Part shown: piece by piece, positions 2,817 to 18,743 of the stretch
Layout: every line of letters begins with the position of its first letter
How positions within the stretch are numbered: position 1 is the stretch's first letter
From: an uncultured Candidatus Saccharibacteria bacterium
GTDB taxonomy: Bacteria; Patescibacteriota; Minisyncoccia; Phycocordibacterales; UBA918
Direction: 5' to 3'
Assembly: GCA_964350985.1 (NCBI GenBank)
Contig: CAYGLK010000002.1
Span: 165,406-229,405, forward strand
DNA: 64,000 bases
Position numbers and translations under genes: made by a program
Notes under the pieces: generated by a model
What the model saw: only the letters and a program-made list of their open reading frames with translations
Databases searched by the model: none
Told to the model about the DNA's origin: nothing

Positions 2817-2992
2817 AATAATGATAGATTAATTTATAGTTTATAAACCGCACACAGCTACTAAAAGCCGTGCCCGAGCGTACATTCTAGGCGGCGCGAG
2901 AACAATCGCGCTTAGAATGAACACGGAGGGCGTGTGAAAGAGCAATACTATGTTCGCTCCACAAAACAGCAGGGCTGTATGCGGTATCGGCA

Positions 2993-3020: not shown

Positions 3021-3021
3021 G

Positions 3022-3060: not shown

Positions 3061-3254
3061 CTTAATTGACCAATTTACTACGCTTCTTCTACAACATCCT
3101 TCAGGGTCCTTAAAATAATCACATACAATATGAATCTCAGAGAAAAACACAAATTTCGTTGACTCCTTACAGGAGCAGTACACCTTGTCGATATTTTAAG
3201 CTCTCGGGGAGCAAAAATATCTGACAAGGTCCGTAAAATATATAACGAAGAATA

Positions 3255-3296
3255 AAAATAAAAGCACCCCCTGGAGGGAGTGCTTTTATTTAGAAT
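3255..3296 (-). terminator. Intrinsic terminator after fusA (agcaccccctggagggagtgct + T-rich tract on minus strand)
   Basis: Stem-loop plus T-run read from the reverse complement. Confidence 0.65.
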
Positions 3297-3303
3297 TTTT
3301 TCA

Positions 3304-5475
3304 TTATGCTTCCTCTACAACATCTTTAACGCCTCTTGCTTTCTTAATATCGTTAGCCACGTTTGGTGGTACGACATCATAGTGATGGAATTCCATCATC
3401 ATTGAAGCTCGTCCTTGTGTCATTGACCGGAGCATGTTGGTGTAACCAAACATTTCAGACAGCGGTACTTTTGCAGTAATCACCTTCTTGTCTCCAATAT
3501 CAGCCATTCCTTCTACTTGGCCACGCTTACTAGAAATATTTCCGTTAACGTCACCCATGAATTGTTCTGGTGTTCGAACTTCGATCTTCATTACTGGCTC
3601 AAGTAGAACAGCACCAGCCTTAGCCGCTGCTTCCTTGAAAGCATAGATAGCCGCTAGTTTGAAAGCAATTTCTGAAGAGTCCACGTCGTGGAATGACCCA
3701 TCGTAAAGCTCAACAGTAACATCCTCCATCTTAAACCCAGCCACGAATCCTCGAGACATTGCTTCTTTACAACCTTTCATTACAGCTGGGATGTATTCTC
3801 CAGGAATAACTCCTCCCTTAATACTGTTGATGAATTCGTAGTGATCTTCACGAGTCACGTTCTTAGGAATCTTCTCATCTGGCTCCAGTTCTTTCATTGG
3901 TCGGATACGGATCTTCACGTGACCATACTGTCCCCGTCCTCCAGACTGCTTAACATACTTATATTCTGCCTCCGCATCTCGTTGAATAGTTTCACGATAA
4001 GCTACTTGTGGTGCTCCCACGTTTGCCTCAACGTTAAATTCTCGCTTCATACGATCTACTAGAATTTCTAGGTGAAGTTCACCCATTCCAGCGATAATTG
4101 TTTCCATTGTTTCTTCATCGGTAGAAACTTTGAAAGTTGGATCTTCATCAGCTAGCTTTCGTAGTGCTACACCCATTCTTTCTTGGTCACCCTTTGTCTT
4201 TGGTTCTACTCGAAGTGCTACCACTGGTTCTGGGAACTTAATTTGTTCAAGTATAATTGGGTGCGCTTCGTCACAAAGTGTATGAGAAGTCTTCACTTCC
4301 TTAAGTCCTACTCCAGCAGCAATTTCTCCAGCGTATACTTCCTCGATTTCTGTTCGCTTATCAGCTTGCAGTCGAACAATACGTCCAAGACGTTCCTTTT
4401 CACCTGTAGTTGAGTTGTAGATATAACTACCAGACTTCACCACTCCAGAATATACTCGGAAGAAAGTAAGCTGTCCTACAAACGGGTCAGTTTGTAGTTT
4501 GAAAGCCAAAGCACAAAAAGGTTCACTATCGTCTGGTAGACGAGTAATATCGCTTTCGTCTTTAGGATTAATACCCTTAATTGGTGGTAGGTCTGTTGGA
4601 GCTGGTAGGTAATCAACCACAGCGTCGAGTACTAGCTGTACACCAATGTTCTTTAGCGCAGAACCAGTCATCACAGGGAAAATCTCGTTTGCAATAACAG
4701 CTTTACGTAATGTGATCTTCAAGTCTTCAGTAGTTGGTTCGTTACCAGCTAGGAAAGCCTCCATCAAAACATCATCGTGCTCTACTACTCGCTCTACTAG
4801 TTCAGCTCGATACATCTCAGCATCAGCCTTTAGTTCTTCAGGAATTTCAACTTCCTTAACTTCCATTCCCATAACTCCTTCAAAGACGAAGGCTTTCATC
4901 TTGATCAAGTCAACTACACCCTTTAGTTGATCTTCAGCTCCCCAAGGTAGTTGGATACGAACTGCTTTCTTAGATAGTCGGTCTTGGATACTCTTGTATG
5001 ACTTTTCAAAACTCGCTCCCAATCGGTCCATCTTGTTGATGAAACAAATACGAGGTACACCAGCTTCGTCAGCGTAACCCCAGTTAGTTTCTGATTGTGG
5101 TTCTACTCCTGCTACAGAGTCAAACACTACTACAGCGCCGTCGAGCACACGCATTGATCGCTTTACTTCAGCAGTAAAGTCGATGTGTCCTGGAGTATCA
5201 ATAATATTAAAGTTGTACATCTTTGTCCGATCTTTTCGATCTTCCACTTCTGTTTTAGACCAGTTACAAGAAATAGCCGCTGCGGTAATAGTAATACCAC
5301 GCTCTCGTTCTTGCTCCATCCAGTCAGTGACGGTAGCACCATCGTGCACCTCACCAATCTTGTGACTCATCCCTGTATAGAAAAGTACGCGTTCTGAAGT
5401 GGTAGTCTTACCAGCATCAACGTGCGCCACAATTCCAAAGTTTCGCATTCTATCTACTCCAAATTCTCGTGCCAT
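3304..5475 (-). CDS. fusA: Elongation factor G
   Basis: 723 aa; AHVDAGKTTTSERVL, DTPGHIDF, full five-domain EF-G length. Confidence 0.97.
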   Translation of the reverse strand: MAREFGVDRMRNFGIVAHVDAGKTTTSERVLFYTGMSHKIGEVHDGATVTDWMEQERERGITITAAAISCNWSKTEVEDRKDRTKMYNFNIIDTPGHIDFTAEVKRSMRVLDGAVVVFDSVAGVEPQSETNWGYADEAGVPRICFINKMDRLGASFEKSYKSIQDRLSKKAVRIQLPWGAEDQLKGVVDLIKMKAFVFEGVMGMEVKEVEIPEELKADAEMYRAELVERVVEHDDVLMEAFLAGNEPTTEDLKITLRKAVIANEIFPVMTGSALKNIGVQLVLDAVVDYLPAPTDLPPIKGINPKDESDITRLPDDSEPFCALAFKLQTDPFVGQLTFFRVYSGVVKSGSYIYNSTTGEKERLGRIVRLQADKRTEIEEVYAGEIAAGVGLKEVKTSHTLCDEAHPIILEQIKFPEPVVALRVEPKTKGDQERMGVALRKLADEDPTFKVSTDEETMETIIAGMGELHLEILVDRMKREFNVEANVGAPQVAYRETIQRDAEAEYKYVKQSGGRGQYGHVKIRIRPMKELEPDEKIPKNVTREDHYEFINSIKGGVIPGEYIPAVMKGCKEAMSRGFVAGFKMEDVTVELYDGSFHDVDSSEIAFKLAAIYAFKEAAAKAGAVLLEPVMKIEVRTPEQFMGDVNGNISSKRGQVEGMADIGDKKVITAKVPLSEMFGYTNMLRSMTQGRASMMMEFHHYDVVPPNVANDIKKARGVKDVVEEA

Positions 5476-5680
5476 AATAATTTTACTAATTACTTCTTAT
5501 ACCTATATATGTATTGATAATTGATACTCCCTTTCAGCCCGACGACTTACTTGAAAGTAAGCTTGGAGAAAAGAAAAAGCCTAAACAGGCTTAACGCCGA
5601 TACTATACGGTATTTGAGCCCAATCGGCAACCGTTTAAAGCTACAAAATATAAAAAATGGATTAGGTTAGGTAAAACATG

Positions 5681-5706
5681 AATTATTCCCGAATGTAAAG
5701 ATTACT
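5681..5706. promoter_or_regulatory. Inverted repeat GAATGTAAAG-att-ACTTTACATTTC overlapping the likely promoter (TAGAAT about 8 nt before the ATG) of the oxidoreductase-DedA gene
   Basis: Read directly. Confidence 0.35.
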
Positions 5707-5738
5707 TTACATTTCATAATCTGCTAGAATATCCTTAT

Positions 5739-7820
5739 ATGCAAAATAATACTTTTGACGCAGTAGTGCTGGGAGCTGGGTCAGGCGGACTAACTACAGC
5801 TGTGGGCTTGAGTAAAGTCGGTCAAAAAGTACTTCTGGTTGAGCGTGAACATATGGGTGGCGAATGTACCAATACTGGTTGTGTTCCTAGTAAGGCCCTA
5901 CTCCATCATGCTAAGGGTTATTTTCATGCTACCAAGATTGCCGGTATGACTCCGAAGACCGAGACCTATCGCCAAGAAGCCTTTACCTACGTGCGAAACA
6001 AGATTGAAGAAATTTTAGCAGAAGAAACACCGGAACACTTTCAGAAACAAGGTATCACCGTCGTAATGGGGGAAGCCGAATTTACCGGCCCAGAGAGTAT
6101 TAAGGTTGGCACTGAAGAATACACCTTCAAAAAAGCAGTGATCGCTACTGGTTCTTCCCCGCGTCCACTTGATATCCCTGGACTGGAAGAAAAAATGATC
6201 CTAACCAACCAAAATATTTTTGATCTGACCAAGATTCCCGCTCGCACCCTGATTATTGGCGGCGGTCCAATCGGAATGGAAATGGGACAAGCTCTAGCTA
6301 TGCTTGGAAGCCAAGTAACTATTATTGAAAATGGTCCCCGTTTTGCGAAACTAGAGGATGAGGCTATTAGTCCAATCATTAACAGGAAGTTCGAACAGCT
6401 TGGCATCAAAATATATACCAATGCCAACGTGACCAAGATTGAAAATTACTTGGCTGAAGTCAAAGTAAAAGACGGAGATGGTGCTGAAGTCATGATGCCG
6501 AAGATTGCCTTCGATAAAGTCTTAATTGCGATTGGTCGAGTACCCAATCTTCCAAATGGTTTAGCCCTAGCTCAAATCAAGTGTGAAACTTACGGAATAA
6601 CCGTTAATAAAAACTGGCAGACCGCCAACAAAAACATTTATGCTTTGGGTGATGTCTCGGCCCGGATGAAATTTACCCACGTAGCAGACGACACCGCCAG
6701 ACAAGTTGTTGGCCGCATAGCTAGTAAGGGTTTCTTCAGTGTGAAGACAAAAGAAATTCCCAAAGTGACTTATACCGAACCTGAAATTGCTCAGGTAGGA
6801 CTTTCATACAAAGAAGCTTTGGAAGAATATGGCATTGGAAGAATAATGCGGATTGAAGTCCCATACAGTGAAAACGATCGAGCTAAGACTGATGCTGCTA
6901 CCGAAGGACTCTTAGTCATTACCGCCAAAAGACTTTCCGGAAAAATTTTAGGAGCAAATATTATCGGTGAAAATGCTGGAGACTTAATCGGGACTATTAC
7001 AGTGACAATGCAGCACAATATTTCTCTATACAAACTTCGCTCAACTATCTTTGCCTACCCAACTCTTTCCCTTCTCATCCGGAAAGCAGGTGACAAATTC
7101 TTTGGCCAGCAAATTGCTGACCTGAAGACCGACATCAAAAATCTGCTGAAACGTAATATCCCAAAATTAGTAGCGGTATTCTTCTGGCTATCGCTTATCA
7201 TTGGTTTCAATTATTACCGAGTATCGAATGATCTTTCCTACCAGGATATTTTGATGGAAATGTTAACCTTCTTCACCAGCACGGCTTATGGGCCACTGAT
7301 CTACATGGTTTTATATGCTTTGCGTCCACTCATACTTTTCCCAGCCACGATCCTGACCGCCCTTTCCGGAGCCTTGTTTGGCTTTTGGTGGGGAGTTCTC
7401 TATACCCTTATTGGTGAAAATCTTTCAGCCAACTTCGCCTACTGGATTGGCCGCTACTTCGGTAATGATTTCAAACTAGAAAAAACAGCCATTGGAAAAT
7501 GGGTTGAAGCGCTTCGTAAAAAGCCATTTGAATCTGTCTTATTTATGCGACTCTTCTATGTACCGTTTGATCTAACCAACTACGGCTCTGGAATCCTGAA
7601 GATAAAATGGTCTTCATACTTTACCGCTACCTTGATTGGTATTGTTCCTGGCCTGACTACCTTCGTAGCTCTGGGTGCTGCCGTTGATCTAGACAAGTTC
7701 CGCACAGACGGTATTACTTTTGACGCCTTCAACCCAGCTTTCTTAGCTTTGTCAGTAGGAATCTTTGTAGTTTCAATTATGATTTCTAACTATCTTAAGA
7801 AGAAGAAAGAAGTGAAGTAA
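5739..7820 (+). CDS. Fusion protein: class I pyridine nucleotide-disulfide (FAD) oxidoreductase N-terminal domain fused to a DedA/TVP38-TMEM64 family membrane domain
   Basis: N-terminus has GAGSGG FAD fold and the redox-active GGECTNTGCVPSK CxxxxC motif (lipoamide dehydrogenase/mercuric reductase class). The C-terminal ~230 aa are multi-pass membrane with DedA-like YVPFDLTNYGSGIL segment. Confidence 0.7.
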   Translation: MQNNTFDAVVLGAGSGGLTTAVGLSKVGQKVLLVEREHMGGECTNTGCVPSKALLHHAKGYFHATKIAGMTPKTETYRQEAFTYVRNKIEEILAEETPEHFQKQGITVVMGEAEFTGPESIKVGTEEYTFKKAVIATGSSPRPLDIPGLEEKMILTNQNIFDLTKIPARTLIIGGGPIGMEMGQALAMLGSQVTIIENGPRFAKLEDEAISPIINRKFEQLGIKIYTNANVTKIENYLAEVKVKDGDGAEVMMPKIAFDKVLIAIGRVPNLPNGLALAQIKCETYGITVNKNWQTANKNIYALGDVSARMKFTHVADDTARQVVGRIASKGFFSVKTKEIPKVTYTEPEIAQVGLSYKEALEEYGIGRIMRIEVPYSENDRAKTDAATEGLLVITAKRLSGKILGANIIGENAGDLIGTITVTMQHNISLYKLRSTIFAYPTLSLLIRKAGDKFFGQQIADLKTDIKNLLKRNIPKLVAVFFWLSLIIGFNYYRVSNDLSYQDILMEMLTFFTSTAYGPLIYMVLYALRPLILFPATILTALSGALFGFWWGVLYTLIGENLSANFAYWIGRYFGNDFKLEKTAIGKWVEALRKKPFESVLFMRLFYVPFDLTNYGSGILKIKWSSYFTATLIGIVPGLTTFVALGAAVDLDKFRTDGITFDAFNPAFLALSVGIFVVSIMISNYLKKKKEVK

Positions 7821-7926
7821 TGAGCTTAAAGAAAAAGAGTGGCCAGCAAGGCTGGCCACTCTTTTTCTTGTAGAATAGTATTTTGTACAAATTGCACAAA
7901 ATACTGGTTTAGAGTATAATTTCACT

Positions 7927-8169
7927 ATGAAAATAATTTCCACCAGCAAAGCACGAAATCTATTGCCAAAGTTTATCGCTTCCCTCAAGGAAAGTGACAA
8001 GGCTTTTGTGATTGGTCGTCGCAATACCCCTGAAGCGGTGATTATTAAATTTCCAAGCCATTTTCGAAATAATGTCTCTGATATTACCAATATCAATGCC
8101 TACTCCTCTAGTTTTGACTTCTTAGCAGATGAACCAGATCTGTATAGCGCCGCTGACGTAAAAAGTTAA
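7927..8169 (+). CDS. Type II antitoxin, Phd/YefM-like
   Basis: 80 aa; SKARNLLPKFIASL...FVIGRRNTPEAVII resembles the Phd/YefM N-terminal fold. It sits 3 nt upstream of a MazF/PemK-like toxin. Confidence 0.55.
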   Translation: MKIISTSKARNLLPKFIASLKESDKAFVIGRRNTPEAVIIKFPSHFRNNVSDITNINAYSSSFDFLADEPDLYSAADVKS

Positions 8170-8172
8170 ACA

Positions 8173-8508
8173 ATGAAAAGAAAAGTATTACATTGTAATA
8201 AAGGTGACATCTTACTCATTCCCTTTCCTTTTACTGACCTGTCTAGTAGTAAGCTTCGTCCAGGGGTTGTTCTAGCTCAAGATAAAAACGATATGACCCT
8301 AATCTTTATTACGAGCCAAAAACCAAAAGGAGAAAAGTTTTTGGAACTAAATCCAACCAAAGAAAATGGCATCAAAGTAAAGTCATATATTCGCTACACC
8401 AAAGTTGCCACTCTTGATTTAGCTATGTCACTTGGTCAAATTGGTAAATTAGACAGAGAAACACACAGCAAAATTGTTTCTAGCTTTAACGACTTTATTG
8501 CGATTTAA
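8173..8508 (+). CDS. Type II toxin, MazF/PemK family endoribonuclease
   Basis: 111 aa; GDILLIPFPFTDLSSSKLRPGVVL matches the PemK/MazF signature (GDI..v.fPf.d.s..K.RPa.Vl). Confidence 0.7.
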   Translation: MKRKVLHCNKGDILLIPFPFTDLSSSKLRPGVVLAQDKNDMTLIFITSQKPKGEKFLELNPTKENGIKVKSYIRYTKVATLDLAMSLGQIGKLDRETHSKIVSSFNDFIAI

Positions 8509-8518
8509 TTTTAATTAA

Positions 8519-8548
8519 AAACAGGGCGGCCTACGGCTGCCCTGTTTT
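8519..8548. terminator. Bidirectional terminator between convergent toxin gene and alkylation-repair-like gene
   Basis: cagggcggcc-tac-ggctgccctg hairpin with flanking A/T runs. Confidence 0.6.
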
Positions 8549-8551
8549 TGT

Positions 8552-9718
8552 TTACCCCACCAACTCAAAGTTTTCTTTGACCAAAATCTTTCCATTCACT
8601 TGGATCTCAAGCCTATGTTCTCCGGTATAAAGTGTTCGAGTACTCATCAGTCGAAGCGGGTGTTGTTTACTGAACATTATTTCTCCGTCTGGAACTAAGG
8701 TTTTATTCCCAAGATCAAATACTTTGGCCGCCAATTTCCCGTTTGCCTTTTTAAAATAAATTAGATAGCTAAGTTTTAAATTTTGTTTCTTCTTACTTAG
8801 CGACTTGAGCCCAAAACAAAAGTCTAGTTTCTCACCAATTTTTACCTGGGGTGTTAGAAGCTTAAATTGCTTCACTCCTACCTCAACTTCTCCAAACCCC
8901 AGCAATTTTAGCGCCTTCAAATTTCCCTGCTTAACCAAAGTCCGTAGCGAGTGTTTGATTATAAAATCAACTTCATCTTGATTTTGTTTTTTATCTTTTT
9001 TCCACTTGGTTAAAGTTTTTAACACTAAGTCTGGATAGATCTTGGACAGATCGTTTAGATGATTGGCGACTGAACGAGTAACATAGCGGCTTTTATCAGC
9101 ATGCAAAGTATCTAGAATTGGAAAGAGTAATTTTGGATCAATATTTATTTTTTTAGCCCAGGGAAGATTTGGTCTGGTTCCCTCGCTTGCTAGTCGGCGC
9201 ACGTGATAATTTTTGGACTTAGACCAGACAGCTACTGTAGCTAAAGTTTCTTTAGGAAAATTATTTAGAAAATCCCGCAAGGCACCTTCACAAGAAAATC
9301 TTTTAGTGATTTCTTCAAGTGCGTTTAAAGATACTTTCAAATGTTTTGCAGCACAACCATACTCGGCCACAAAATATGAATACGGCGCATAAATAAAATC
9401 ACCAAAGTCAGCGTCAGTTTTTGTAGGATCAAGTGGTGCTGGTAAAGCTAACAAAATAACCTCAACGGCCTCTTTATAGTCAGTCGGTAAATATTCACGC
9501 AGGCGATCCCTGATACCCATTATTCTCTGCATCAACTCTTGTTCGGGAAAATCTTTCAAAACCGCTTTTACAAAATCTTTTTCTTTGAACACTGGGTAAG
9601 CCTTCTTTATTTCTCTGGCTAACTTTTCTACTTTAACTTTATTAAAAAGCATGTCTTTTAGTAAGAAGATCTTTTCGGTTTGTCGGTGTTTAGTCATATT
9701 TGTATTTTCGCCTTTCAC
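8552..9718 (-). CDS. HEAT-repeat DNA alkylation repair enzyme-like protein (AlkD/COG4335-like)
   Basis: 388 aa; segment WSKSKNYHVRRLASEGTRPNLPWAKK resembles the DNA_alkylation family motif. Assignment by eye only. Confidence 0.45.
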   Translation of the reverse strand: MKGENTNMTKHRQTEKIFLLKDMLFNKVKVEKLAREIKKAYPVFKEKDFVKAVLKDFPEQELMQRIMGIRDRLREYLPTDYKEAVEVILLALPAPLDPTKTDADFGDFIYAPYSYFVAEYGCAAKHLKVSLNALEEITKRFSCEGALRDFLNNFPKETLATVAVWSKSKNYHVRRLASEGTRPNLPWAKKINIDPKLLFPILDTLHADKSRYVTRSVANHLNDLSKIYPDLVLKTLTKWKKDKKQNQDEVDFIIKHSLRTLVKQGNLKALKLLGFGEVEVGVKQFKLLTPQVKIGEKLDFCFGLKSLSKKKQNLKLSYLIYFKKANGKLAAKVFDLGNKTLVPDGEIMFSKQHPLRLMSTRTLYTGEHRLEIQVNGKILVKENFELVG

Positions 9719-9760
9719 AGAGAAATAGCAAGCCTAAAGTTATATTGATATAATGTCAGC

Positions 9761-10111
9761 ATGAATAAATATCACGGAAGTTGTCACTGCGGAAAAGTAG
9801 CCTACGATGTCGAAGCTGATTTTACAGAAGCAATGCGTTGTAACTGTAGTCATTGTAAACGTAAGGGGTTTTTATTAGCCTTTGTGCCTCTAGATAAATT
9901 TAATCTTGTTTCAGGTGAAGAAAATTTAACTACCTACCATTTCAATAAACACCATATTGATCATACTTTTTGTAAGACCTGTGGCACAGAGTCTTTCGCT
10001 AAGGGTCACGATGGGAATGGAAACCACATGGTGATGATCAACCTCAACTGTATTGAGGACTTTGATATCACCAATCTCAAAATCGGCGAGTACGACGGCG
10101 CTAGTGCTTAA
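9761..10111 (+). CDS. GFA family protein (glutathione-dependent formaldehyde-activating / CENP-V-like Zn domain)
   Basis: 116 aa; CHCG...CNCSHC...CKTCG cysteine pattern typical of the GFA domain. Confidence 0.65.
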   Translation: MNKYHGSCHCGKVAYDVEADFTEAMRCNCSHCKRKGFLLAFVPLDKFNLVSGEENLTTYHFNKHHIDHTFCKTCGTESFAKGHDGNGNHMVMINLNCIEDFDITNLKIGEYDGASA

Positions 10112-10124
10112 GTTTAGATAAAAA

Positions 10125-10168
10125 GAAAAGGCGAGGAAGAGTTGCTGTCGCAACCCTTCCTCGCCCAG
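10125..10168. terminator. Bidirectional terminator hairpin ggcgaggaagag...cttcctcgcc between convergent genes
   Basis: 10-bp perfect stem. Confidence 0.6.
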
Positions 10169-10188
10169 CGTCCTTCACAACGATCTCG

Positions 10189-11022
10189 TCAGACGGCAAC
10201 ACCTTCGTTCGTTTCAACCACTTCTAGTTCCTTCGGCTGGTCAGGCTTGCGCGTCAGCACCCAAAGGGTAAACATGGAGAGAAGCGGGACCCAAAAAGCA
10301 GTCAACGCCAAACTCGGTTGGTCCATGGCATGATACATGTTTACCAGAAAATATGGTGCGCATGCCAGGAACAAAATGGAAATTACAATACCAAATAGTC
10401 CAGCGAGCTCGTTCCATGGGGAGTCCTTATCACCTGGCCAGTTTTTGCTAAGTGAATAACTTCGATTGAAGATAGCTATGTACGTTATGAAGGAATAAAT
10501 CAACCCCGCCCAGATCAGATATATAATCATAAGTACCTTTTTATTGTATTGAACATAGCTGATTGAACCTTCGGGGTTTATCCACGCCGGAATCGGCTCT
10601 GATACAGCAGCTAGTCCAGCAATGCTTTGCATTTCCCATGGGTAAAGAGCAGGTGCAATATCGATTTCAAACCAAGAAGGAAGGTCATCTATCCAAGTAT
10701 GATTGGAAAGTAGATAAACTGTTCGTCCATCTATTGTGACTTCAATTGCACCTTCCATTGCACTTTTCTTGAGACGAGCTTTCTCTTGATTCAAACGATC
10801 TGCTTTCTTTTTTTTCTGGTCAAAGTACTCTTCCTGCTTCGCTAACTGCGCCTCGTTGAGGTTCGCCGAGTCGTACGGCGGGACAACCAACTCGTCGGGA
10901 ACCACAAATTTCGCTACCAGAAACAAAAGCACCAAGATGATGATTGTCCCCAAAAAGCGAACATTTGCTTCAAGTGTCTCCGGAGACGCTGGGTCTGCTT
11001 TCTCTTCTATTACCTGATTCAT
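10189..11022 (-). CDS. Hypothetical membrane protein
   Basis: 277 aa; several hydrophobic segments. Lies in a GC-rich block and converges on a hairpin terminator at 10130-10165. Confidence 0.45.
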   Translation of the reverse strand: MNQVIEEKADPASPETLEANVRFLGTIIILVLLFLVAKFVVPDELVVPPYDSANLNEAQLAKQEEYFDQKKKKADRLNQEKARLKKSAMEGAIEVTIDGRTVYLLSNHTWIDDLPSWFEIDIAPALYPWEMQSIAGLAAVSEPIPAWINPEGSISYVQYNKKVLMIIYLIWAGLIYSFITYIAIFNRSYSLSKNWPGDKDSPWNELAGLFGIVISILFLACAPYFLVNMYHAMDQPSLALTAFWVPLLSMFTLWVLTRKPDQPKELEVVETNEGVAV

Positions 11023-11219
11023 GCTTCTCTCCCATTGATTGTGACAGAACGACGAGCGCTTTACTCGTTAAATTGAACGATACAACTTTATAACAATGGT
11101 GTCAATTCAGCCTCGACAGATTTTGTCCGTCTGTTTTATTGACACTACAAATGGCCGTAGTACTGTATTTATATTACCTGCTCTTACCCTTCTGTTCTTT
11201 TCCATACTAGGAGACTCCG

Positions 11220-11552
11220 ATGAAAATCAAAATGGGTCGCCACAGACTCTGGAAGGTTTTTGACAAGGCTGTCACAATCTATTTTTTTGTGGCACTGCTG
11301 CTATCACCCCTTCTGGTAGCCTCATGTGTCACCTTGGTACAGGGCGACTACTTGCCGTGGTACAAGCACCTCACTCTGGCATTCTATATGCCACAAGGAG
11401 TCTGGCTGGCACTAACGGCCTACCTGATAATTCCAACCGAAGAAGATTGGAACTCAAGCTTTAGGAGAGGTCTCAGCCTTGCGTTGGCTCTTACGATCTC
11501 CGTTTTTGGTCTAAGCAATCTGCTGCTGGCGATCATGGAATTCATCAGTTAG
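11220..11552 (+). CDS. Hypothetical small membrane protein
   Basis: 110 aa, 3 predicted TM segments. Followed by hairpin/T-run near 11578-11612. Confidence 0.4.
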   Translation: MKIKMGRHRLWKVFDKAVTIYFFVALLLSPLLVASCVTLVQGDYLPWYKHLTLAFYMPQGVWLALTAYLIIPTEEDWNSSFRRGLSLALALTISVFGLSNLLLAIMEFIS

Positions 11553-11680
11553 TTGGAGGAGGGAGAAACTGAGGCCGGGTGTGCATGCACGTCCGGTTTT
11601 TCTTATGTTTATAATTTGAAATCTAAAAGTAATTCCTCATGAAGAGAAATTTTTTAAAAGTTTAATGCTAAACTTTAAGG

Positions 11681-12520
11681 ATGAATTACGTGCGTGTTCT
11701 TTATCTCGCTCTTATCGCTTATGTTGCCACTCTCTTTGGTGACGCGGGAGACATTGGCATCACTGGTTTTTTAATCCCTAGTATCTTGATGGGGATCGGA
11801 GTCGGGATAGATGTTTTTATCGCTACCCTAGTAAAGTATCGCGACACTAACATGTCTTGGAAAAACTGGACTATACCAGTAGTTATCACTCACATTACTT
11901 TTCCAGCCTTTGGGTATTTTATGTTTTGGTCGCTCTCGACCTCTGTTCCAGTAGCTCAGTTTACTCTAGGAATTATTGGGTTTGTCTTGGTGACATTATT
12001 CATCTATGAAGTCATTTGTGAATCAGCTGGCTTAAAACCAATCTTTGGAATTTCTTCTTGGATCGGTTCTTTCTTTGGTTTTAGAGAAAACGACTCTCGA
12101 CTATTTATTACTGTCCTTGTTGTTAGTTGGGACGCTCTCTGGAGTGGACCAGCCAAAGCTGCTCAAGCAAGTGCTGGAGCGTGGTCAAATTTTGAGGTCG
12201 GGCTTTCATTTGCTATTGCTGGACTGGTAGTAGCTATAGTTGCTGAAGTTGCTCTATTTTTAGCTCACTACCTGCGAACCAAAAATTTCAAAAACCCTAT
12301 CTCAATGTCACGTTTTAATATTGTTGGAAAATATATTGAGTTATCAGTTATTGGTGGCTTTGGAGTTCTCTCTCTTTGGAATAGTTTCTCTAACGAAGCC
12401 AACTTATATCAATCAATCATCATCTCTAGTCTAATACTTCTTATTATTTTTATAATCATCCTCCAACCACTCTGGAATAGACAAATCAAAGAAGCCAGAA
12501 CGGCACTCAAATCTAAATAA
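11681..12520 (+). CDS. Multi-pass membrane protein, possibly DUF204/MntP-like
   Basis: 279 aa; two repeats carrying a conserved Asp in TM context (GIGVGIDVFIATL, VVSWDALWSG), reminiscent of MntP/YtaF. Paralogous to the next gene. Confidence 0.35.
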   Translation: MNYVRVLYLALIAYVATLFGDAGDIGITGFLIPSILMGIGVGIDVFIATLVKYRDTNMSWKNWTIPVVITHITFPAFGYFMFWSLSTSVPVAQFTLGIIGFVLVTLFIYEVICESAGLKPIFGISSWIGSFFGFRENDSRLFITVLVVSWDALWSGPAKAAQASAGAWSNFEVGLSFAIAGLVVAIVAEVALFLAHYLRTKNFKNPISMSRFNIVGKYIELSVIGGFGVLSLWNSFSNEANLYQSIIISSLILLIIFIIILQPLWNRQIKEARTALKSK

Positions 12521-12739
12521 AACCCTTATTCACAAGCTTGACTTATAGTCAAGCTTGTGCTACTGTCTCGAAGCAAATCGAAATTGCTGTACATCTTGTT
12601 CTTCGAAAACTAAGTAGAGGAACCATAACCGCGGGAGTTACAAACCATGAAGATTTGGAAGACCGCCTGCACGGCACTTGCCGTGTCCTGGGACGAGCTT
12701 TTGCTCTCCCTCAACATCCGCACAACCGAGGGGTAAGTC

Positions 12740-13603
12740 ATGAATCTCATCGATGTTTTGTCCATCATTGGACTCGCCATCGCTGTGGGTGTTGGTGTCT
12801 CGATGGACGTCAGCGGCTACAACATCTCGATGGCGGGGAACAGGGAATACTCTGAAGCTCCAATCAGACGCTCCCTGTTTCACGCCTTCTGGCACGGCCT
12901 GTTCCTTTCTCTTGGAATTGGTCTGATTACAGCTGTTGGAGCCATCTTCGAGCACCTGCTGATCAAGTACAACCTCGGCTGGATTTTCGAGTGGATTTCC
13001 AACATCCTTGCTTGGCTTCATCCAAGCCAAGTCGTGGTTTGGATTCTGGCCATTGTGGGCATCGGGCTTTGGACCAAGCTCTATTATGACAAGCTCCGCG
13101 GCGAAGGCGGTGACGAACACGTCCCAGGATGGCTGAAGTGGTTTCTGACCCTCTTCAAAGTTCCCATCACTCAAATGATGTTCGTTCTCGTCGCCGTCGA
13201 CATGTGGTTTCTGACACCACTGATCAAGGCCTTGATCGAGATGTACACCATCGCTGGGAAGGCCATGTTTGTTGCGTTCGTATTCGCAACTGTGTTCACT
13301 TGCAGCATGATATCGATCAAGTACGGGCAGCGATTCCTCAAGAGCGGGAACGTGAAGGCGTTGTTTTTCTGGTTGGTGGCGCTCGTGTTTATTGAGCCGC
13401 TGATTACCGGTTACTTCGGCGGGCGTACAGCCTACTGGGCACTTACCGGAACCTGGGACAACAACGTATCTCTCATTCTTTTCTCGGCGGTGATTGTGAT
13501 GATCTTGTCAATTGGCAAGTTCGCAGGGATCGTCGAGGACAAGTGGGACGAAGCCAACGAAGCAGTCCACGGAAAACCGCAGGAACCTGAAGCGGCAGCG
13601 TAG
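12740..13603 (+). CDS. Multi-pass membrane protein, paralog of 11681..12520 (DUF204/MntP-like?)
   Basis: 287 aa; VGVGVSMDVSGYNIS and VAVDMWFLTP motifs at equivalent positions. GC-rich; followed by terminator 13627-13660. Confidence 0.4.
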   Translation: MNLIDVLSIIGLAIAVGVGVSMDVSGYNISMAGNREYSEAPIRRSLFHAFWHGLFLSLGIGLITAVGAIFEHLLIKYNLGWIFEWISNILAWLHPSQVVVWILAIVGIGLWTKLYYDKLRGEGGDEHVPGWLKWFLTLFKVPITQMMFVLVAVDMWFLTPLIKALIEMYTIAGKAMFVAFVFATVFTCSMISIKYGQRFLKSGNVKALFFWLVALVFIEPLITGYFGGRTAYWALTGTWDNNVSLILFSAVIVMILSIGKFAGIVEDKWDEANEAVHGKPQEPEAAA

Positions 13604-13626
13604 AACATCGCTGCAGAAGAACTGAG

Positions 13627-13790
13627 CACCCCCCGGCCAATGCGGCTGGGGGGATTTTGTATTGAAATATTAAGAGTTTTGGAGTGAAGAAAAAAGCGCG
13701 ACCGTAGGTCGCGCTTTTTCTTTATATCTTTTTCAGCTTTACCAAAAAATAAAACCTTTCAGTTAACTGAAAGGTTTTATTTTCGACTTC
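13627..13790. terminator. Cluster of three intrinsic terminator hairpins (13629-13653; 13690-13720; 13751-13778) in one 165-bp convergent spacer
   Basis: Three independent GC stems, each with a T-run on at least one strand. Confidence 0.6.
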
Positions 13791-13796
13791 TTGTAC

Positions 13797-15284
13797 TTAT
13801 TTAGACTTTTTAGCGAGATCCAAAGTCTCGTCAATGCGGATTTGTTCCACAAAGTCTGCCACGTGAGAAACCAAAATCATCGCGCCTTTATAATCATGTA
13901 AAGCTTGAGCAATCACTGGAATGTGACGGAAGTTAATGTGGTTGGTTGGCTCGTCTAAAATCAACAGCCCTGGTTTTTCCATTGTTAGTTTTGCAAAAGC
14001 GACTAAACCTTTTTGTCCTTCAGAGAGGTTACCTACTTTAGTCTTCATCACGTCACCGAAAAGCAGGAAGCCGGCAGCAATAGAGCGCATCTCCTCCTCC
14101 AACTTTCTTTGCATTGAGTCCATCAACGTTTCAAACACTGTTTTATCAAAATCTAAGTTAGAGAAGTCTTGGCGGTAGTAACCGATCTTTACTCCTGGAG
14201 CAATATGCTCCCCTTCTGCATGACCTGAAGCTAGTCGTTCAAGCAAGGTTGTCTTACCAATTCCATTTGGACCAACAATACGCAAGTGTGTACCTCGTTT
14301 CAAAACCAAGTCACACTCCACCTCTTTTGGTTCGTGGTTTTTTATCACTTGGTACGAAGTAAGTTTTACCACTTCAAGTGGTACGTCTCCATGCGGTTCA
14401 ATCGTAAATGGCCGGATAGTTTTATCTTCACGACGGACATCAACCTTGTTTTCTTCTGCTTCTTCTACTTCGTCACGCATTCGCTTGGCTACCAAACGCA
14501 TCTTTCCTCCCTTGTTGGAAAAGTAGTTAATCTTGTCTTTGTTGGCTTGGATCTCTTTAGCTAATCTAGCGTTTTCCCGTTGCTCCTTTTCTACTTGAGC
14601 GGCAATATCTTTTACCACAGCGTGATAGTTACCGTTATATTGTTCTACCTGACGTCGTTGCGTATTGAGATAAAGTACTCCTTGAGTAAATGAGTTCAAA
14701 AAGTCTGAATCGTGAGAAATAACCAAAACTGTCTTATTGTATTCCTTAAGGAAAGTGGTCAGGTGCTCAATACCAGCCACATCAAGATTGTTGGTTGGCT
14801 CATCAAGGAGTAGGACGTCTGGCTTTTGAATCAAAGCCTGGGCTAGAAGCAGACGCGCTTGTTGCCCTCCAGAAAAACTACCGATGATTCGATCTTTGAA
14901 AGTCTCGCGCTGCTTTTCAGTTGGAGTAAGGTTTACTACTTCCAAGACATCCTCAATCTTTGGGTCAATATCATAAATCTTCTCTTCAAAACATTTTTCG
15001 AAAAATTCTCGGACTGTTAGTTTTAGTTCTGGACGAGGAATGATCTGGCGAGCGATCGCGATAGTAGTCCGCGGTTCAATATTAATATCTCCATCATCAG
15101 CATGACGGTCTCTAGTAATAAGAGAAAAGATTGTACTTTTACCAGCGCCGTTTTGCCCCATCAGAGTCAGTTTGGCGCCACGACGCACTACAAAGTTGGC
15201 CTCTTTTAAGATTGGCCTAGTTGCGTCGTACTCGTACGAAACATTTTTAAAAACAATAATTCCATCGCTGCGTGACATAGGCAA
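13797..15284 (-). CDS. ABC-F family ATPase (tandem ABC domains, no TMD)
   Basis: 495 aa; two Walker A motifs (GQNGAGKST, GPNGIGKTT) and two signature motifs (LSGGQQARL, LSEGQKGLV). Confidence 0.85.
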   Translation of the reverse strand: MPMSRSDGIIVFKNVSYEYDATRPILKEANFVVRRGAKLTLMGQNGAGKSTIFSLITRDRHADDGDINIEPRTTIAIARQIIPRPELKLTVREFFEKCFEEKIYDIDPKIEDVLEVVNLTPTEKQRETFKDRIIGSFSGGQQARLLLAQALIQKPDVLLLDEPTNNLDVAGIEHLTTFLKEYNKTVLVISHDSDFLNSFTQGVLYLNTQRRQVEQYNGNYHAVVKDIAAQVEKEQRENARLAKEIQANKDKINYFSNKGGKMRLVAKRMRDEVEEAEENKVDVRREDKTIRPFTIEPHGDVPLEVVKLTSYQVIKNHEPKEVECDLVLKRGTHLRIVGPNGIGKTTLLERLASGHAEGEHIAPGVKIGYYRQDFSNLDFDKTVFETLMDSMQRKLEEEMRSIAAGFLLFGDVMKTKVGNLSEGQKGLVAFAKLTMEKPGLLILDEPTNHINFRHIPVIAQALHDYKGAMILVSHVADFVEQIRIDETLDLAKKSK

Positions 15285-15339
15285 CTACCATACACTATTT
15301 TTAAGTGAGATGTAAGTCTAAAGCTCAAATAGAGGTAAC

Positions 15340-15639
15340 TTAATCCTCAACATGCTTACCCCACTGCCACTTTGGTTTTTCTCCCTTCCAATACGAAATA
15401 AAGATCAGAATGAGAGTTAGCAATATAATTGGCGCAAAAAAATCTTTTTTTATTTCAGACAGGCTCATTTCTTCATTTAATTTTGAAGCGAAGTACACAA
15501 CCCCGATCAGATATCCAAATACTACCAACCACCCCTGGTAACGCGCCGGAGTCCAGCCCCAACCATACAGCTTTCTCTTAAACCAATAGCCTTTCGGATT
15601 ATCTTTTAGGTACTGAGCGTAGTCTCTAATGATTTTCAT
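15340..15639 (-). CDS. Hypothetical small membrane protein
   Basis: 99 aa, two hydrophobic segments. Confidence 0.4.
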   Translation of the reverse strand: MKIIRDYAQYLKDNPKGYWFKRKLYGWGWTPARYQGWLVVFGYLIGVVYFASKLNEEMSLSEIKKDFFAPIILLTLILIFISYWKGEKPKWQWGKHVED

Positions 15640-15713
15640 ATAATTTATTATGCGCTTAGTTAATAAAAATTCAAGTATTATAAAAAATAGCAGTCATAAA
15701 TGACTGCTATTTT

Positions 15714-15782
15714 TTATTTCTTTTCACCCTTGTCTTTCTTTGGCTTCTTCTTTTCTTTACGCATGTCCTGACCCTTAGCCAT
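15714..15782 (-). CDS. Possible 22-aa lysine-rich peptide MAKGQDMRKEKKKPKKDKGEKK
   Basis: ATG at 15780-15782 (minus), TAA stop at 15714-15716. Immediately followed on the minus strand by a perfect hairpin (15682-15710) plus T-run. Not in the ORF track (<60 aa). Confidence 0.25.
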   Translation of the reverse strand: MAKGQDMRKEKKKPKKDKGEKK

Positions 15783-15842
15783 AATGCTTTTGTCTTATGT
15801 AATAAAAACCAATATCTATATTATAGCAAAGCTCTATAATTA

Positions 15843-16430
15843 TTAGTTGAAGAGGATGGGTATTTCTAGGGCGTCGTCATTTTCTGGCAAACCGGATGGG
15901 TTATCCTTGTGTAGAATCAAAGTTCCCCTTTTCATGAACTCAGGATCCCCTTCATTATATGGAGAAACAAATTCTAGCTGAGTGCTAAAAGGTACAAATT
16001 CCTCAGTCATCCAATCTCCGGCCGCAGTTGCAAAGCCTTCAGCAATAATTAGCCCATCCCAGTTAGTAAGTACTATCGGGAAGCTAGCTTCGAAGTACCA
16101 GTAACCGCGAGCCTGTCCGCTAATAGTTTGCGGGGATTCAATTTTTCCGTTCGGGACTGGAGTATCTAATCTAATTAGATCACTTTTAGAATCAATGTGT
16201 GCTTGTATATCAGCCTCTACTTCTGGTAAAGCTGGGCAGACAAATTCACAATTTGGACCAGTACGTCCCACATAAGATCCATCCGGACACATCATCGCGT
16301 CCATTGTACAAGCGACAGCATCGTCCTCGGACGGCAGAGGTCCAACCACTTCAGTTCTAGGTGAAATAAAAAACTGCAGCAAAGCGAGCACCACTGCTAA
16401 ACCAATCAAAATATATATTGCTTTTATCAT
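15843..16430 (-). CDS. Secreted protein with Gmad2-like immunoglobulin-like domain
   Basis: 195 aa; N-terminal signal/TM, Cys-rich linker, C-terminal GYWYFEASFPIVLTNWDGLIIAEGFATA...EFVPFSTQLEF resembles the Gmad2 domain. Confidence 0.35.
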   Translation of the reverse strand: MIKAIYILIGLAVVLALLQFFISPRTEVVGPLPSEDDAVACTMDAMMCPDGSYVGRTGPNCEFVCPALPEVEADIQAHIDSKSDLIRLDTPVPNGKIESPQTISGQARGYWYFEASFPIVLTNWDGLIIAEGFATAAGDWMTEEFVPFSTQLEFVSPYNEGDPEFMKRGTLILHKDNPSGLPENDDALEIPILFN

Positions 16431-16673
16431 ATTAAATATTATAGCAAACTAGCCTAATAAAAGAGACAGAAATCTCTTTGTCGAAACCGTCGCTCCAGCA
16501 AAATCTTCATAGACGACTATCTACGCGTTCCCTAAGGAGCTTGGTTTTTCAATATTTCTAAGAGATTTTAGCTATTTCACAGCTATTATTTGACCGTAAA
16601 ATTTTAATATGTTTAGATGCCTGTTGGTTAGCTCTTTATGTGACCTGTTTCATCAACTTCCCCTTTTGCTTTT

Positions 16674-17246
16674 TTGGAGTGTCGCGTGTCAGAAGATACG
16701 GCTGCAACAATTCATCCCAAATCACTTTCAGGAGTAACGTCTGCTTGGGCAGGCCTGGTCTGGATATGCGTGGTGATAGCAATCATCGCGTTACATATCT
16801 ACATTGCAAATGATGTCACTCTTTTACTAGCAGGTACTTTGATCTTGGTATTTTCTGGTATCCTCGTAGTCTCAGCACTCACCAGTAAGCTGAACTCCAG
16901 TCAGCTGGAAGGCTGCATTGAGTACTTGACTCATCTTTCGATGGCACAAGGACTAGTGATCAATCACCTGTCTGACTTGCCAAGCGAAGAAGAGTTGGCT
17001 AAAGCCTTAAAGCCCCTGATCATCTGCTTCCACCTTTTCACAAATCCGAGCTTGCTCAAGAGACATGTTTCTCTGCAGAACAAGGTAATCAGGGATATCA
17101 TCTATTGGGAACTTCACCAAATGCGGGAGGAGGCAGAAGAGGTTTATAACAACCCCAAAAAGGATGAGTCGACAAGGATAACGGCCGGCGACAAGATCTA
17201 CAATCTCAATAAACTGATGGAGGTTCTCTCTCCGACGGTGAAGTGA
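16674..17246 (+). CDS. Hypothetical membrane protein
   Basis: 190 aa ORF with two TM segments, moderately GC-rich. Start uncertain. Followed by terminator 17268-17302. Confidence 0.35.
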   Translation: MECRVSEDTAATIHPKSLSGVTSAWAGLVWICVVIAIIALHIYIANDVTLLLAGTLILVFSGILVVSALTSKLNSSQLEGCIEYLTHLSMAQGLVINHLSDLPSEEELAKALKPLIICFHLFTNPSLLKRHVSLQNKVIRDIIYWELHQMREEAEEVYNNPKKDESTRITAGDKIYNLNKLMEVLSPTVK

Positions 17247-17267
17247 GGCCAGCAGTCGTCGCCGATT

Positions 17268-17302
17268 AAGTTCGCGCCCCCAGGGCGCGAATATTTTTAT
17301 AT
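17268..17302 (+). terminator. Intrinsic terminator ttcgcgcccccagggcgcgaa + T-run
   Basis: Read directly. Confidence 0.65.
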
Positions 17303-17468
17303 TAAAAATAGAAAAGACCCGAGTGGGACACTAGTCAAGTAAATTTTAAATAACATTTGTAGTGACTGAGATTTTCTAAACGAGACAAAGCAAAAGGCCG
17401 GAAAATTTGTGAGCTGTACTAATTAAATAGGTAAATTTTATTTTGAAATGAAGTACGAGGCGAATAAC

Positions 17469-17513
17469 AAAAAAGCCGCGAGGCGTACTGAACGTACGAC
17501 GAGCGGCTTTTTC
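17469..17513 (-). terminator. Intrinsic terminator downstream of rpsG (gccgcgaggcgtac...gtacgacgagcggc + T-run on minus)
   Basis: Read directly. Confidence 0.6.
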
Positions 17514-17548
17514 TGTGTATTCAACGAAGTAATTCGTTCAAAATAGGT

Positions 17549-18019
17549 TTACCAAGCGAAGTGGGCAAAGGCTCGGTTAGCCTCAGCCATCTTGTGAGTA
17601 TCTTCCTTCTTCTTCACTGCATTTCCTTCTTCCTTAGCAGCTAGCTTAAGTTCTTGAGCTAGAGCTTTGTGCATTGGCACGCCTTTTTGATTTCGTGCTC
17701 CAGCAATGATCCATCGTAGGGCCAAAGCCATTCGGCGCTCTGGTCTCACTTCTCGTGGAACCTGGTAGTTTGCTCCACCAACTCGACGTGAACGCACTTC
17801 CATCATTGGACCAGCGTTTCGGAGAGCAGTGTTGAATACTTCCAAAGGATCACCTCCTTCTTTATCATTCTTGATTTCTTCAAATGCACCGTAGACAATC
17901 TTGCGCGCAGTTTCTTTTTGACCACGAAGCATGATGTAGTTGATCAGTCGTTCTACTTCGACAGACTGATGAACAATATCAGGATTTACTACAGGACGTT
18001 TTTTAATTGGACGTCGCAT
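17549..18019 (-). CDS. rpsG: 30S ribosomal protein S7
   Basis: 156 aa; [14 protein letters not shown]...GANYQVP... typical uS7. Confidence 0.95.
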
Positions 18020-18203
18020 AAATTTTAAATTAATTGATTCTTAAGGGTCTTGCTACGACATTAAGAATGAGGAGTGTGTATGACATTCTCATTCTTCGCA
18101 TAATTTGATTCCGAAGCTTTTTAGGCTTGAATCGCATCCGTTATCTGTAGCGAATATAAACTATTTGTAATTGCTCTTACTTCAAGTAGCAGGTAACCCT
18201 GGA

Positions 18204-18611
18204 CTACTTAGGCTTCTTCGCACCGTAGCGCGAACGTCCCATTCGTCGCTCCGCAACTCCAGTAGCATCGTACTTTCCTCGAACAATAGTGTATTGCACA
18301 CCAATGTCCTTTACGCGTCCACCTCGAACCAAAACCACTGAGTGCTCTTGCAAGGTATGCTTGATACCAGGAATGTAAGCAGTGATTTCTTGACCGTTAC
18401 TTAGTCGTACTCGGGCAATCTTTCGAATCGCTGAGTTCGGCTTTCGCGGAGTCTTAGTAGTAACACGAGTACAAACGCCACGTTTAAATGGAGAGTTGTA
18501 AGAGTTTGGCCGATTCTCGATTTTGTTAAATCCAGTATGCAAAGCCCCAGTCTTACTCTTCTTCACTGGATCGCGTCGCTTCTTTCTTGTTAATTGTTGT
18601 ATTGTTGCCAT
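18204..18611 (-). CDS. rpsL: 30S ribosomal protein S12
   Basis: Start reassigned to [14 protein letters not shown] (ATG at 18609-18611), the canonical S12 N-terminus. The 13 upstream codons of the ORF are an extension. Confidence 0.95.
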
Positions 18612-18743
18612 AAAGCTCGCATACAATACTATAACTAGCTTTTTTTGCAACCATTAGAGCCCCTCATCAAGGTTCGACCTTGATATAAATAATATCTCGT
18701 AAGCAGAGCAGACCGCCTCAAACACCAAAACAAAAAGTTATAC

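Follow-up and report, generated by a model that had tools for sequence, protein, structure and literature searches.

In Escherichia coli the str operon comprises rpsL, rpsG, fusA and tufA, transcribed as a single operon, and the adjacency of rpsL, rpsG, fusA and tuf is often taken as near-universal and is used to anchor synteny comparisons and to check metagenome-assembled genomes. The locus examined here raises the question of how this adjacency came to be broken, and of how old the break is. The window, a stretch of 64,000 nucleotides from contig CAYGLK010000002.1 (positions 165,406 to 229,405), carries on its minus strand rpsL-rpsG (18611-17549) and then fusA-tuf-rpsJ-rplC (5475-334), in the canonical order and with 12,073 bp between rpsG and fusA. 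A preliminary description of this sequence had interpreted the intervening block as an insertion hotspot or genomic island within a core operon. The evidence presented below makes it likely, in our judgement, that the rpsG/fusA split is an ancient, vertically inherited and clade-wide feature of Kaiserbacteria-like Patescibacteria, situated at a boundary between transcription units, and not a recent island.

The arrangement itself is well defined. The open reading frame (ORF) listing, Pfam matches and translations agree on gene order and strand, and the gap (5476-17548) contains exactly 13 unrelated ORFs, the number given in the preliminary description, seven on the plus and six on the minus strand. 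On the minus strand lie rpsL (ribosomal protein S12; 18204..18611, Pfam Ribosom_S12_S23 1.5e-30, with the true ATG read from the sequence at 18611), rpsG (ribosomal protein S7; 17549..18019, Ribosomal_S7 1.3e-56), fusA (elongation factor G, EF-G; 3304..5475), tuf (1623-2816) and rpsJ (1221-1589), the last three recognized from their translations, and rplC (334-954; ORF listing and Pfam). The tuf gene follows fusA after 487 nt that include two terminator-like hairpins, and the gene divergent from fusA, encoding an oxidoreductase-DedA fusion, abuts it on the gap side, so that rpsL, rpsG, fusA and tuf do not form a contiguous series under one promoter in the window. Compared with 80 species representatives of the Patescibacteria, FusA of the window shows 57-87% identity: 87% to the protein of MFMT01000030 and 57-80% to those of the 79 other nearest representatives; on sequence grounds the host is a member of the Patescibacteria near Candidatus Kaiserbacteria. 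Upstream of rpsL, where no rpoBC is present, stands a ComEC-SOD-MBL-M50 series that is kept across the lineage, and the window and up to 80+80 loci agree in the colinear order ComEC-SOD-MBL-M50-rpsL-rpsG ... fusA-tuf-rpsJ-rplC. The remainder of the window is ordinary chromosome, with genes for RecJ, PGK, TIM, a pilus ATPase, NusA, trigger factor and RNase Y.

The source is evidently a metagenome-assembled genome, which brings up the possibility that two unrelated regions were joined in a chimeric contig. An independent Logan contig is 100% identical to the window over 13754-18172, from rpsG to the gene for an ABC-F ATPase, and dozens of independent assemblies, including a 962-kb contig, display matching architecture, leaving an assembly or binning artefact with a vanishingly small probability. 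Exact-sequence look-up of RpsG returned as its sole match a 4.4-kb contig identical to the window, with no strain variant, and the same look-up of the window FusA returned no record.

To place the split phylogenetically, metagenome and genome contigs were scanned with the window ABC-F protein, which yielded 80 loci with orthologues 79-91% identical to the window copy. On every contig long enough to show them, rpsL-rpsG lie upstream and fusA-tuf-rpsJ downstream of the ABC-F gene, all on one strand, and FusA identity to the window protein reaches down to 75% within this clade. In the 15 loci with both flanks in view, rpsG and fusA stand 6.1-14.7 kb apart, and the 12.1 kb of the window is typical among them. 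An empty site in a close relative was not encountered: all 15 of these ABC-F loci have a gap of 6-15 kb with a common scaffold, and a compact junction was found only in locus L002 (2.2 kb) and in more distant Paceibacteria. ORF clustering and Pfam resolve the recurring scaffold as rpsG > ... GH15 > Gmad2 > ABC-F > (m99) > GIY-YIG > ... < PNDR-DedA, GDH > fusA, where PNDR stands for pyridine-nucleotide-disulfide oxidoreductase and GDH for glutamate dehydrogenase. The preliminary description had named a synteny comparison among its checks, and the shared arrangement that it associated with an ancient rearrangement is largely what emerges, the split and scaffold being common to the clade while detailed contents differ.

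Divergence of the resident genes points in the same direction. Pairwise identities of ABC-F and of PNDR-DedA correlate with those of FusA (r=0.75 and r=0.79, respectively) as well as those of RpsG do (r=0.75), which marks both genes as long-term, vertically co-inherited residents. Six of the 13 gap genes (PNDR-DedA, ABC-F, m99, Gmad2, GFA and m279) have homologues in the gaps of several relatives, the scaffold genes among them being conserved in position, and four more (Phd, MazF, AlkD-like and m277) each recur in a single relative. On a neighbour-joining tree of FusA, the sister of the window, L086, has m99-ABCF-m279(x2)-m277-PNDR-DedA in common with it, and the next relative, L084, has GFA-AlkD in common with it; in L001 ABC-F stands directly against fusA, and in L002 GFA alone is retained. 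Deep branches already carry GH15-ABCF-GIY-PNDR-DedA-GDH, and close relatives with FusA 92-93% identical differ in gap content. From this distribution we infer the direction of individual gene gains and losses.

These observations bear directly on the idea of a recent or mobile genomic island, according to which the 12 kb arrived as one lateral block in this genome or its immediate ancestors. The genes do lie on both strands and include a toxin-antitoxin pair, three of them are unique to this genome, and G+C content at third codon positions (GC3) is higher in the gap genes than in the other window genes (Mann-Whitney p=0.003). The high GC3, however, stems from four genes only, g9 (0.68), g7 (0.58), g13 (0.55) and g6 (0.47), the other nine being native-like, and overall G+C content is native as well (41.8% against 40.6% for the rest of the window). 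The GC-rich sub-block described at 10.1-13.7 kb exists insofar as g6 and g7 (0.45-0.48) and g9 (0.52) are GC-rich, but it is discontinuous, since g8 between them has a value of 0.39. Nor did the 13 genes, scanned with Pfam, NCBIfam, PADLOC and PHROGs (some of them with one or two of the four libraries only), the flanking genes, scanned with Pfam, or the rest of the window reveal any integrase, recombinase or transposase. No tRNA lies within 37 kb of the gap, the nearest being at 55.6 kb, and neither repeats bracketing 5476-17548 nor target duplications were found at the gap. Taken with the recurrence of most gap genes in relatives and the co-divergence of the residents with FusA, this makes arrival as a single recent block very improbable, and the island part of the preliminary description is not supported. 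Three related ideas also failed: att sites in the form of direct or inverted repeats at the flanks (short chance matches only), a defence island (PADLOC gave just generic ATPase similarity for ABC-F) and phage origin (no meaningful PHROG matches).

If the split is old, what permits it? To go by their motifs, the two edges of the gap resemble borders of separate transcription units. On the upstream side, the rpsL-rpsG unit is preceded by a predicted promoter, TTGCAA-N16-TATTGT (18623..18650, minus strand; a pattern-scan prediction only), and ends in an inverted repeat with a T-run resembling an intrinsic terminator (17470..17512, minus strand). A hairpin with U-run lies 40-85 nt past the rpsG stop codon in most of 27 loci, in a long A-run/GC-stem/U-run layout whose stem sequences often differ. 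On the downstream side, pattern scanning and comparison of loci place a predicted fusA promoter, TTGCCG-N17-TATAGT, at 5602..5630 (minus strand). Of 30 related loci, 29 have the GTATAGTA -10 box; in 26 it lies between -96 and -153 relative to the fusA ATG, and a TTGC -35 box mostly precedes it by about 17 nt.

About 10 nt after this -10 box begins a leader element (5565..5592, minus strand) consisting of a 6-bp hairpin (5577-5592) and a U-rich tract (5565-5576), which across loci takes the form of a 4-6-bp hairpin followed by UUUUUCUUUUCU-like tracts. The hairpin is paired in 90.4% of alignment cells, where shuffles give 71% (0/500) and slid controls 30-51%; four of its six pairs show compensatory changes. 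A covariance model of promoter plus hairpin (R1), run over 1.4 Mb, matched significantly nowhere but upstream of fusA, and recovered L003, a locus outside its seed (E 8e-6). We regard the hairpin and U-tract as a candidate attenuator-like element or 5' stabiliser. Between leader and gene, 25-40 nt before the fusA ATG, alignment reveals a conserved box, AT-rich and near-palindromic, with the consensus ATACATATATAAGTA (5500..5514, minus strand); it is a single site in the window, matched on both strands owing to its near-palindromy. Rfam searches of the boundary regions gave nothing at the gathering threshold, and only sub-threshold terminator-type matches at E<=1.

We infer that the conserved motifs act as promoter and terminator. 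The proposal that fusA and tuf are transcribed apart from rpsLG accordingly survives in part: fusA is very likely separate, given the conserved rpsG terminator and its own promoter and leader, but fusA and tuf would not form one unit, as fusA has a predicted terminator of its own and tuf a predicted promoter and structured leader. The many terminators noted for the block show no statistical excess in number (21 against 17.7 +/- 4.2 in shuffles), although strong hairpins are present at most gene ends.

The same boundary elements bear on a reading in which ABC-F, perhaps with its neighbours, was selected for co-location with translation genes, so that the str cluster would be extended and not broken. 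ABC-F proteins act on the ribosome, as E-site factors, and the gene is co-directional with rpsG and fusA, placed between them wherever visible in the 80 loci, highly conserved and, in L001, directly adjoining fusA. Against this, the conserved terminator past rpsG and the separate fusA promoter, both predicted, lend no support to co-transcription, the stretch from ABC-F to fusA is occupied by variable genes of unrelated function, and ABC-F is absent from the rpsG|fusA junction in all 79 other Paceibacteria representatives. Functional recruitment as the cause of the split is on balance unlikely.

An old separation at a unit boundary can be compared with other junctions of the cluster, which were surveyed in the 80 nearest Paceibacteria species representatives with a gap threshold of 500 nt. 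Gaps above this threshold were present at rpsG|fusA in 20 of 66 cases (nine above 1 kb, maximum 7.4 kb), at fusA|tuf in 41 of 55 (13 above 3 kb, maximum 9.3 kb) and at rpsJ|rplC in 12 of 48. At rpsL|rpsG there were none among 65, the distance never exceeding 261 nt, and at tuf|rpsJ there was one among 52; in relatives tuf and rpsJ are never more than 711 nt apart. In ten further loci, the 1.3-10 kb upstream of fusA contained no rpsG. Almost all of the ORFs occupying the gaps are mutually unrelated (213 singleton clusters). Where junctions are compact, terminator-like hairpins occur in 30-35% at the three permissive sites, against 0 of 64 at rpsL|rpsG and 10% at tuf|rpsJ, a comparison confounded partly by gap length. 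Many compact rpsG-fusA spacers contain a terminator, a promoter-like box and a hairpin with T-tract in series. As a separate observation, a single giant ORF fills fusA|tuf or rpsG|fusA in some Paceibacteria (L007:12128-21385 and L028:2613-10000; 2829 aa and 2010 aa).

Repeated and independent expansion of three junctions with unrelated genes might indicate an actively targeted hotspot, with site-specific delivery, for example by GIY-YIG homing or by recombination at the conserved promoter and terminator sequences. A GIY-YIG gene follows ABC-F in nine of 16 complete gaps, and the differing contents of close relatives fit such a process. The window, however, has no GIY-YIG gene and no repeats or target duplications, and tolerance at unit boundaries suffices as an explanation. 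Gap turnover is only moderately above that of the flank: in the ABC-F clade 39% of the ORFs in the gap occur in just one or two loci, against 28% of those in the conserved ComEC-rpsL flank, by naive ORF calls. Targeted delivery is in our view quite improbable. The flank control also weakens the notion of a gap much more fluid than the sequence around it. The term 'insertion hotspot' in the preliminary description holds to the extent that junction content varies among relatives; given the moderate difference in turnover, it is a weak description of this junction and should be used cautiously.

The explanation that we favour, an ancient split at a transcription-unit boundary, can be outlined as follows. 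The cluster would consist of four autonomous units, rpsL-rpsG, fusA, tuf-rpsJ and rplC-..., as conserved sequence and structure suggest: rpsL-rpsG with its own promoter and conserved terminator, fusA with its own sigma-70-type promoter and hairpin/U-tract leader, and tuf-rpsJ and rplC-... each with a promoter/terminator pair. Most simply, genes would be able to settle where no transcript and no translational coupling must cross, and would be tolerated at these boundaries because nothing need be co-transcribed across them. The space would have been filled by ordinary chromosomal genes, with contents mostly native and slow turnover. Its long-term residents would be the co-directional genes for ABC-F, the Gmad2 protein and a small membrane protein, together with the divergent PNDR-DedA gene beside fusA; the GFA, AlkD-like and m279/m277 membrane protein genes and the Phd/MazF pair would come and go; and the strain-specific g7, g9 and g13, atypical in composition, would be the newest additions in this genome. 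The contents would form a mosaic because small gains and losses act on an old scaffold.

Several considerations weigh against this account, in addition to the gap-length confounding and the modest rare-ORF difference given above. The promoter and terminator calls are sequence predictions, and the promoter pattern is no more frequent across the window than in shuffles (12 against 7.8 +/- 2.6). Locus L002, which has a 2.2-kb gap and lacks ABC-F, falls within the clade as a long branch, and this placement calls for a loss or a tree artefact, and the tree is based on FusA alone. The loci were found through ABC-F, so that the share of clade members without it is not inferable, and all data derive from metagenome assemblies.

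Immediately downstream, the junctions following fusA exhibit boundary elements of a similar kind, all on the minus strand. A terminator-like hairpin of 16 pairs with a T-run lies directly after fusA (3256..3291), a second one, with a weak terminator-type Rfam match, at 3020-3056, and directly after it a predicted tuf promoter, TTGCAA-N16-TACTAT (2993-3020). The rpsJ gene is followed by another terminator-like hairpin (1165-1200; sub-threshold terminator-type Rfam matches) and then by a predicted rplC promoter, TTGCTT-N16-TATAGT (1114-1141); one promoter consensus recurs before fusA, rpsL, tuf and rplC. The region upstream of rplC (955-1220) contains a leader of ~150 nt with a long hairpin (CACAAACCGCGC...GCGCGGTTTGTTG), which may be an L4/S10-operon-type leader. 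Just downstream of fusA, between the two terminator-like hairpins, a non-coding block (3152-3276) is 70-89% conserved in L002, L097 (two copies) and L154; with its two hairpins it may represent a small RNA or else a repeated element, and a 98-aa ORF partly overlapping it (2887-3183) has no homologue.

The tuf-rpsJ unit begins with a structured 5' leader of ~165 nt (about 2840..2985, minus strand), conserved in at least 12 loci of the clade. Its consensus comprises a closing helix and three internal helices with 34 pairs, and 93.6% of alignment cells are paired against 26-57% in slid controls, the structure having been derived from the same alignment; in helix 3, eight of ten pairs have compensatory changes on both sides. 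No Rfam family matches it. At 2933-2944, about 115 nt from the tuf start, the leader contains the sequence TGCTCTTTCACA, invariant in 12 loci, which we take to resemble the E. coli rrn boxA consensus; the window itself contains no rRNA operon. BoxA/Nus-factor autoregulation of rpsJ (NusE) and suhB has been proposed, and in several genera boxA is reported to precede rpsJ itself or the leading gene of the operon that includes it (Baniulyte et al., 2017; PMC5725501). The window resembles that system in having a boxA-like TGCTCTTTCACA in the 5' leader of the unit encoding S10/NusE, and differs from it in that the box lies within a ~165-nt covarying multi-helix structure, in Patescibacteria. Because rpsJ encodes S10/NusE, Nus-factor (NusB/S10) feedback through this leader is, by analogy, a lead.

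A broader possibility, which we put forward tentatively and would rate at somewhat under even chances, is that the str-S10 cluster of this lineage has been rebuilt as four modules, each with its own promoter, terminator and lineage-specific cis-regulatory leader. For fusA this leader would comprise the attenuator-like hairpin and U-tract close to the promoter, together with the AT-rich box. Such a rebuilding would enable the build-up of accessory genes and the fixation of ABC-F, and the tuf-rpsJ RNA could provide NusB/S10 feedback. Were this modular picture correct, the ~165-nt covarying tuf-rpsJ RNA with its boxA-like sequence would be previously undescribed.

The genes of the gap, taken from the fusA side, begin with the PNDR-DedA/VTT fusion (5739..7820, plus strand; Pfam Pyr_redox_2 5.5e-62, VTT_dom 9.6e-24), which is present in 15 related loci, invariably on the strand opposite to fusA. 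It has >6000 homologues, and both domains are present in all 120 among the matches listed. In L084 a stand-alone DedA/VTT gene (L084:14192-14863, 224 aa) occupies the fusA-adjacent slot held by the fusion in the window and 15 other loci, which suggests loss of the oxidoreductase part, or domain fusion, within the clade. Next come a Phd/YefM-like antitoxin gene (7927-8169, plus strand; 24.3 bits in Pfam, below the cut-off of 29.8, and over the N-terminal half only) and, 3 nt from it, a MazF/PemK toxin gene (8173-8508, plus strand; 35.3 bits, cut-off 23.1), preceded by a promoter-like site from the pattern scan (7892-7920, plus strand). Among the related loci this pair occurs elsewhere only in L101, in reversed orientation relative to fusA. 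The gene for an AlkD-like protein with DNA_alkylation repeats (8552..9718, minus strand; PF08713 1.1e-7) is common only to the window and L084 (61% identity). A protein of the GFA family (glutathione-dependent formaldehyde-activating-like) is encoded at 9761..10111 on the plus strand (Pfam GFA 4.5e-17), with homologues in L002, L084, L092, L095, L116/L120, L131 and L134 that likewise run opposite to fusA; the L131 copy lies upstream of ABC-F instead of between ABC-F and fusA.

A series of membrane protein genes follows, four in the gap having no Pfam family match, in addition to m99. The 277-aa protein g6 (m277; 10189..11022, minus strand), with no Pfam match, has a weak homologue (31-34%) at the equivalent position in the sister locus L086. 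The 110-aa protein g7 (11220..11552, plus strand; GC3 0.577, z=2.7) is specific to the window, none of the 160 related loci having a homologue. The 279-aa protein g8 (m279 family; 11681..12520, plus strand), again without a Pfam match, has homologues in the matching slot of L086 (two copies, 69% and 52%), L094, L096 and L141. The GC-rich g9 (12740..13603, plus strand; GC3 0.684, z=3.9) is absent from all related gaps in the 160 loci and belongs to a family with only 12 homologues among 5.8 billion proteins. In the three of these whose contigs were read, the gene lies at a conserved metK/methylase-murC locus on higher-GC Patescibacteria contigs, the closest homologue having a GC3 of 0.71 on a contig of 48.6% GC; g9 was probably acquired recently from another member of the Patescibacteria. 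The description of g8 and g9 as paralogous finds no support in BLASTP (E 0.3), but profile-profile comparison with hhalign supports remote homology (89.8%, E 1.8e-6, 246 columns). They represent two remotely related families of ~280-aa membrane proteins, both with G-x-G-x-x-x-D-V close to the N-terminus and a further motif, containing an aspartate, in mid-protein; neither family has a Pfam relative or any match in PDB profile searches.

On the rpsG side, the minus strand encodes the ABC-F ATPase (13797..15284), with two ABC_tran domains and an ABC_tran_Xtn linker in Pfam and no transmembrane domain, as is characteristic of ABC-F proteins. Its best NCBIfam model is that of a ribosomal-protection-like ABC-F, at 321 bits below the cut-off of 380, so that no subfamily is assigned. 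The small GIY-YIG nuclease gene found directly after ABC-F in other loci (for instance L111:1552-1884, L128, L135 and L140) is, like the GH15 and glutamate dehydrogenase genes common in relatives' gaps, missing from that of the window. The 99-aa membrane protein m99 (15340..15639, minus strand) is a recurrent neighbour of ABC-F, with homologues in 13 loci directly upstream or downstream of it. The secreted Gmad2-domain protein g12 (15843..16430, minus strand; Pfam Gmad2 3.7e-10) has homologues upstream of ABC-F in about 25 loci; a Gmad2-like ORF of L001 was considered as its orthologue and is a weakened candidate, with just an N-terminal Cys-rich motif in common and 32% identity. Last, the ORFan g13 (16674..17246, plus strand, opposite to the ribosomal genes; GC3 0.545, z=2.3) has no Pfam, NCBIfam or PHROG match, is absent from all 160 related loci and has just two homologues among 5.8 billion proteins. 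Having no counterpart in relatives and a high GC3 (z 2.3-3.9), g7, g9 and g13 are credible candidates for recent acquisition by lateral transfer. Outside the gap, a 317-aa ORF (18744-19697, minus strand) between the M50 peptidase gene and rpsL, with native GC3 (0.34), no Pfam or PHROG match and no homologue in the 160 related loci, is a second insertion peculiar to the window; the M50|rpsL junction where it lies is variable.

In a large group of Patescibacteria, then, the rpsL-rpsG-fusA-tuf adjacency is routinely broken, at specific junctions, and a split str cluster in such genomes should not be taken as a misassembly or a fresh island. The group offers a natural experiment on the constraints acting on the ribosomal supercluster, in which rpsL|rpsG and tuf|rpsJ are constrained and rpsG|fusA, fusA|tuf and rpsJ|rplC are not. 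It also supplies candidate RNAs that may regulate the expression of EF-G and of EF-Tu/S10, in organisms about whose gene regulation almost nothing is known.

Compared with the E. coli str operon, the window has the same genes in the same order and on the same strand, with rpsL and rpsG tightly linked. It differs in that rpsG|fusA and fusA|tuf are not contiguous, each part having its own predicted promoter and terminator, in that tuf is joined to rpsJ instead of fusA, and in having ComEC-SOD-MBL-M50 upstream of rpsL instead of rpoBC. A literature search for a split str operon in Patescibacteria or the candidate phyla radiation found no paper. The nearest precedent comes from Proteobacteria, in which operons within the ribosomal supercluster are set apart by multigene insertions (Brandis et al., 2019; PMC6735719). 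As in those insertions, colinear translation units on one strand have been pushed apart by unrelated genes, here at predicted unit boundaries, with the ancestral order and strand of the flanking units kept. The present case departs from them in that the break falls inside what is a single str operon of the E. coli type, at rpsG|fusA and again at fusA|tuf, and in that it measures 6-15 kb, is fixed in a whole clade and has a conserved resident set (ABC-F, PNDR-DedA and Gmad2), in Patescibacteria. With integrase-mediated islands the locus has in common a both-strand accessory block, including a toxin-antitoxin pair, in a conserved neighbourhood, as well as a few atypical genes; unlike them, it is devoid of an integrase or transposase, tRNA and att repeats, is native in overall composition and is built on a vertically inherited scaffold.

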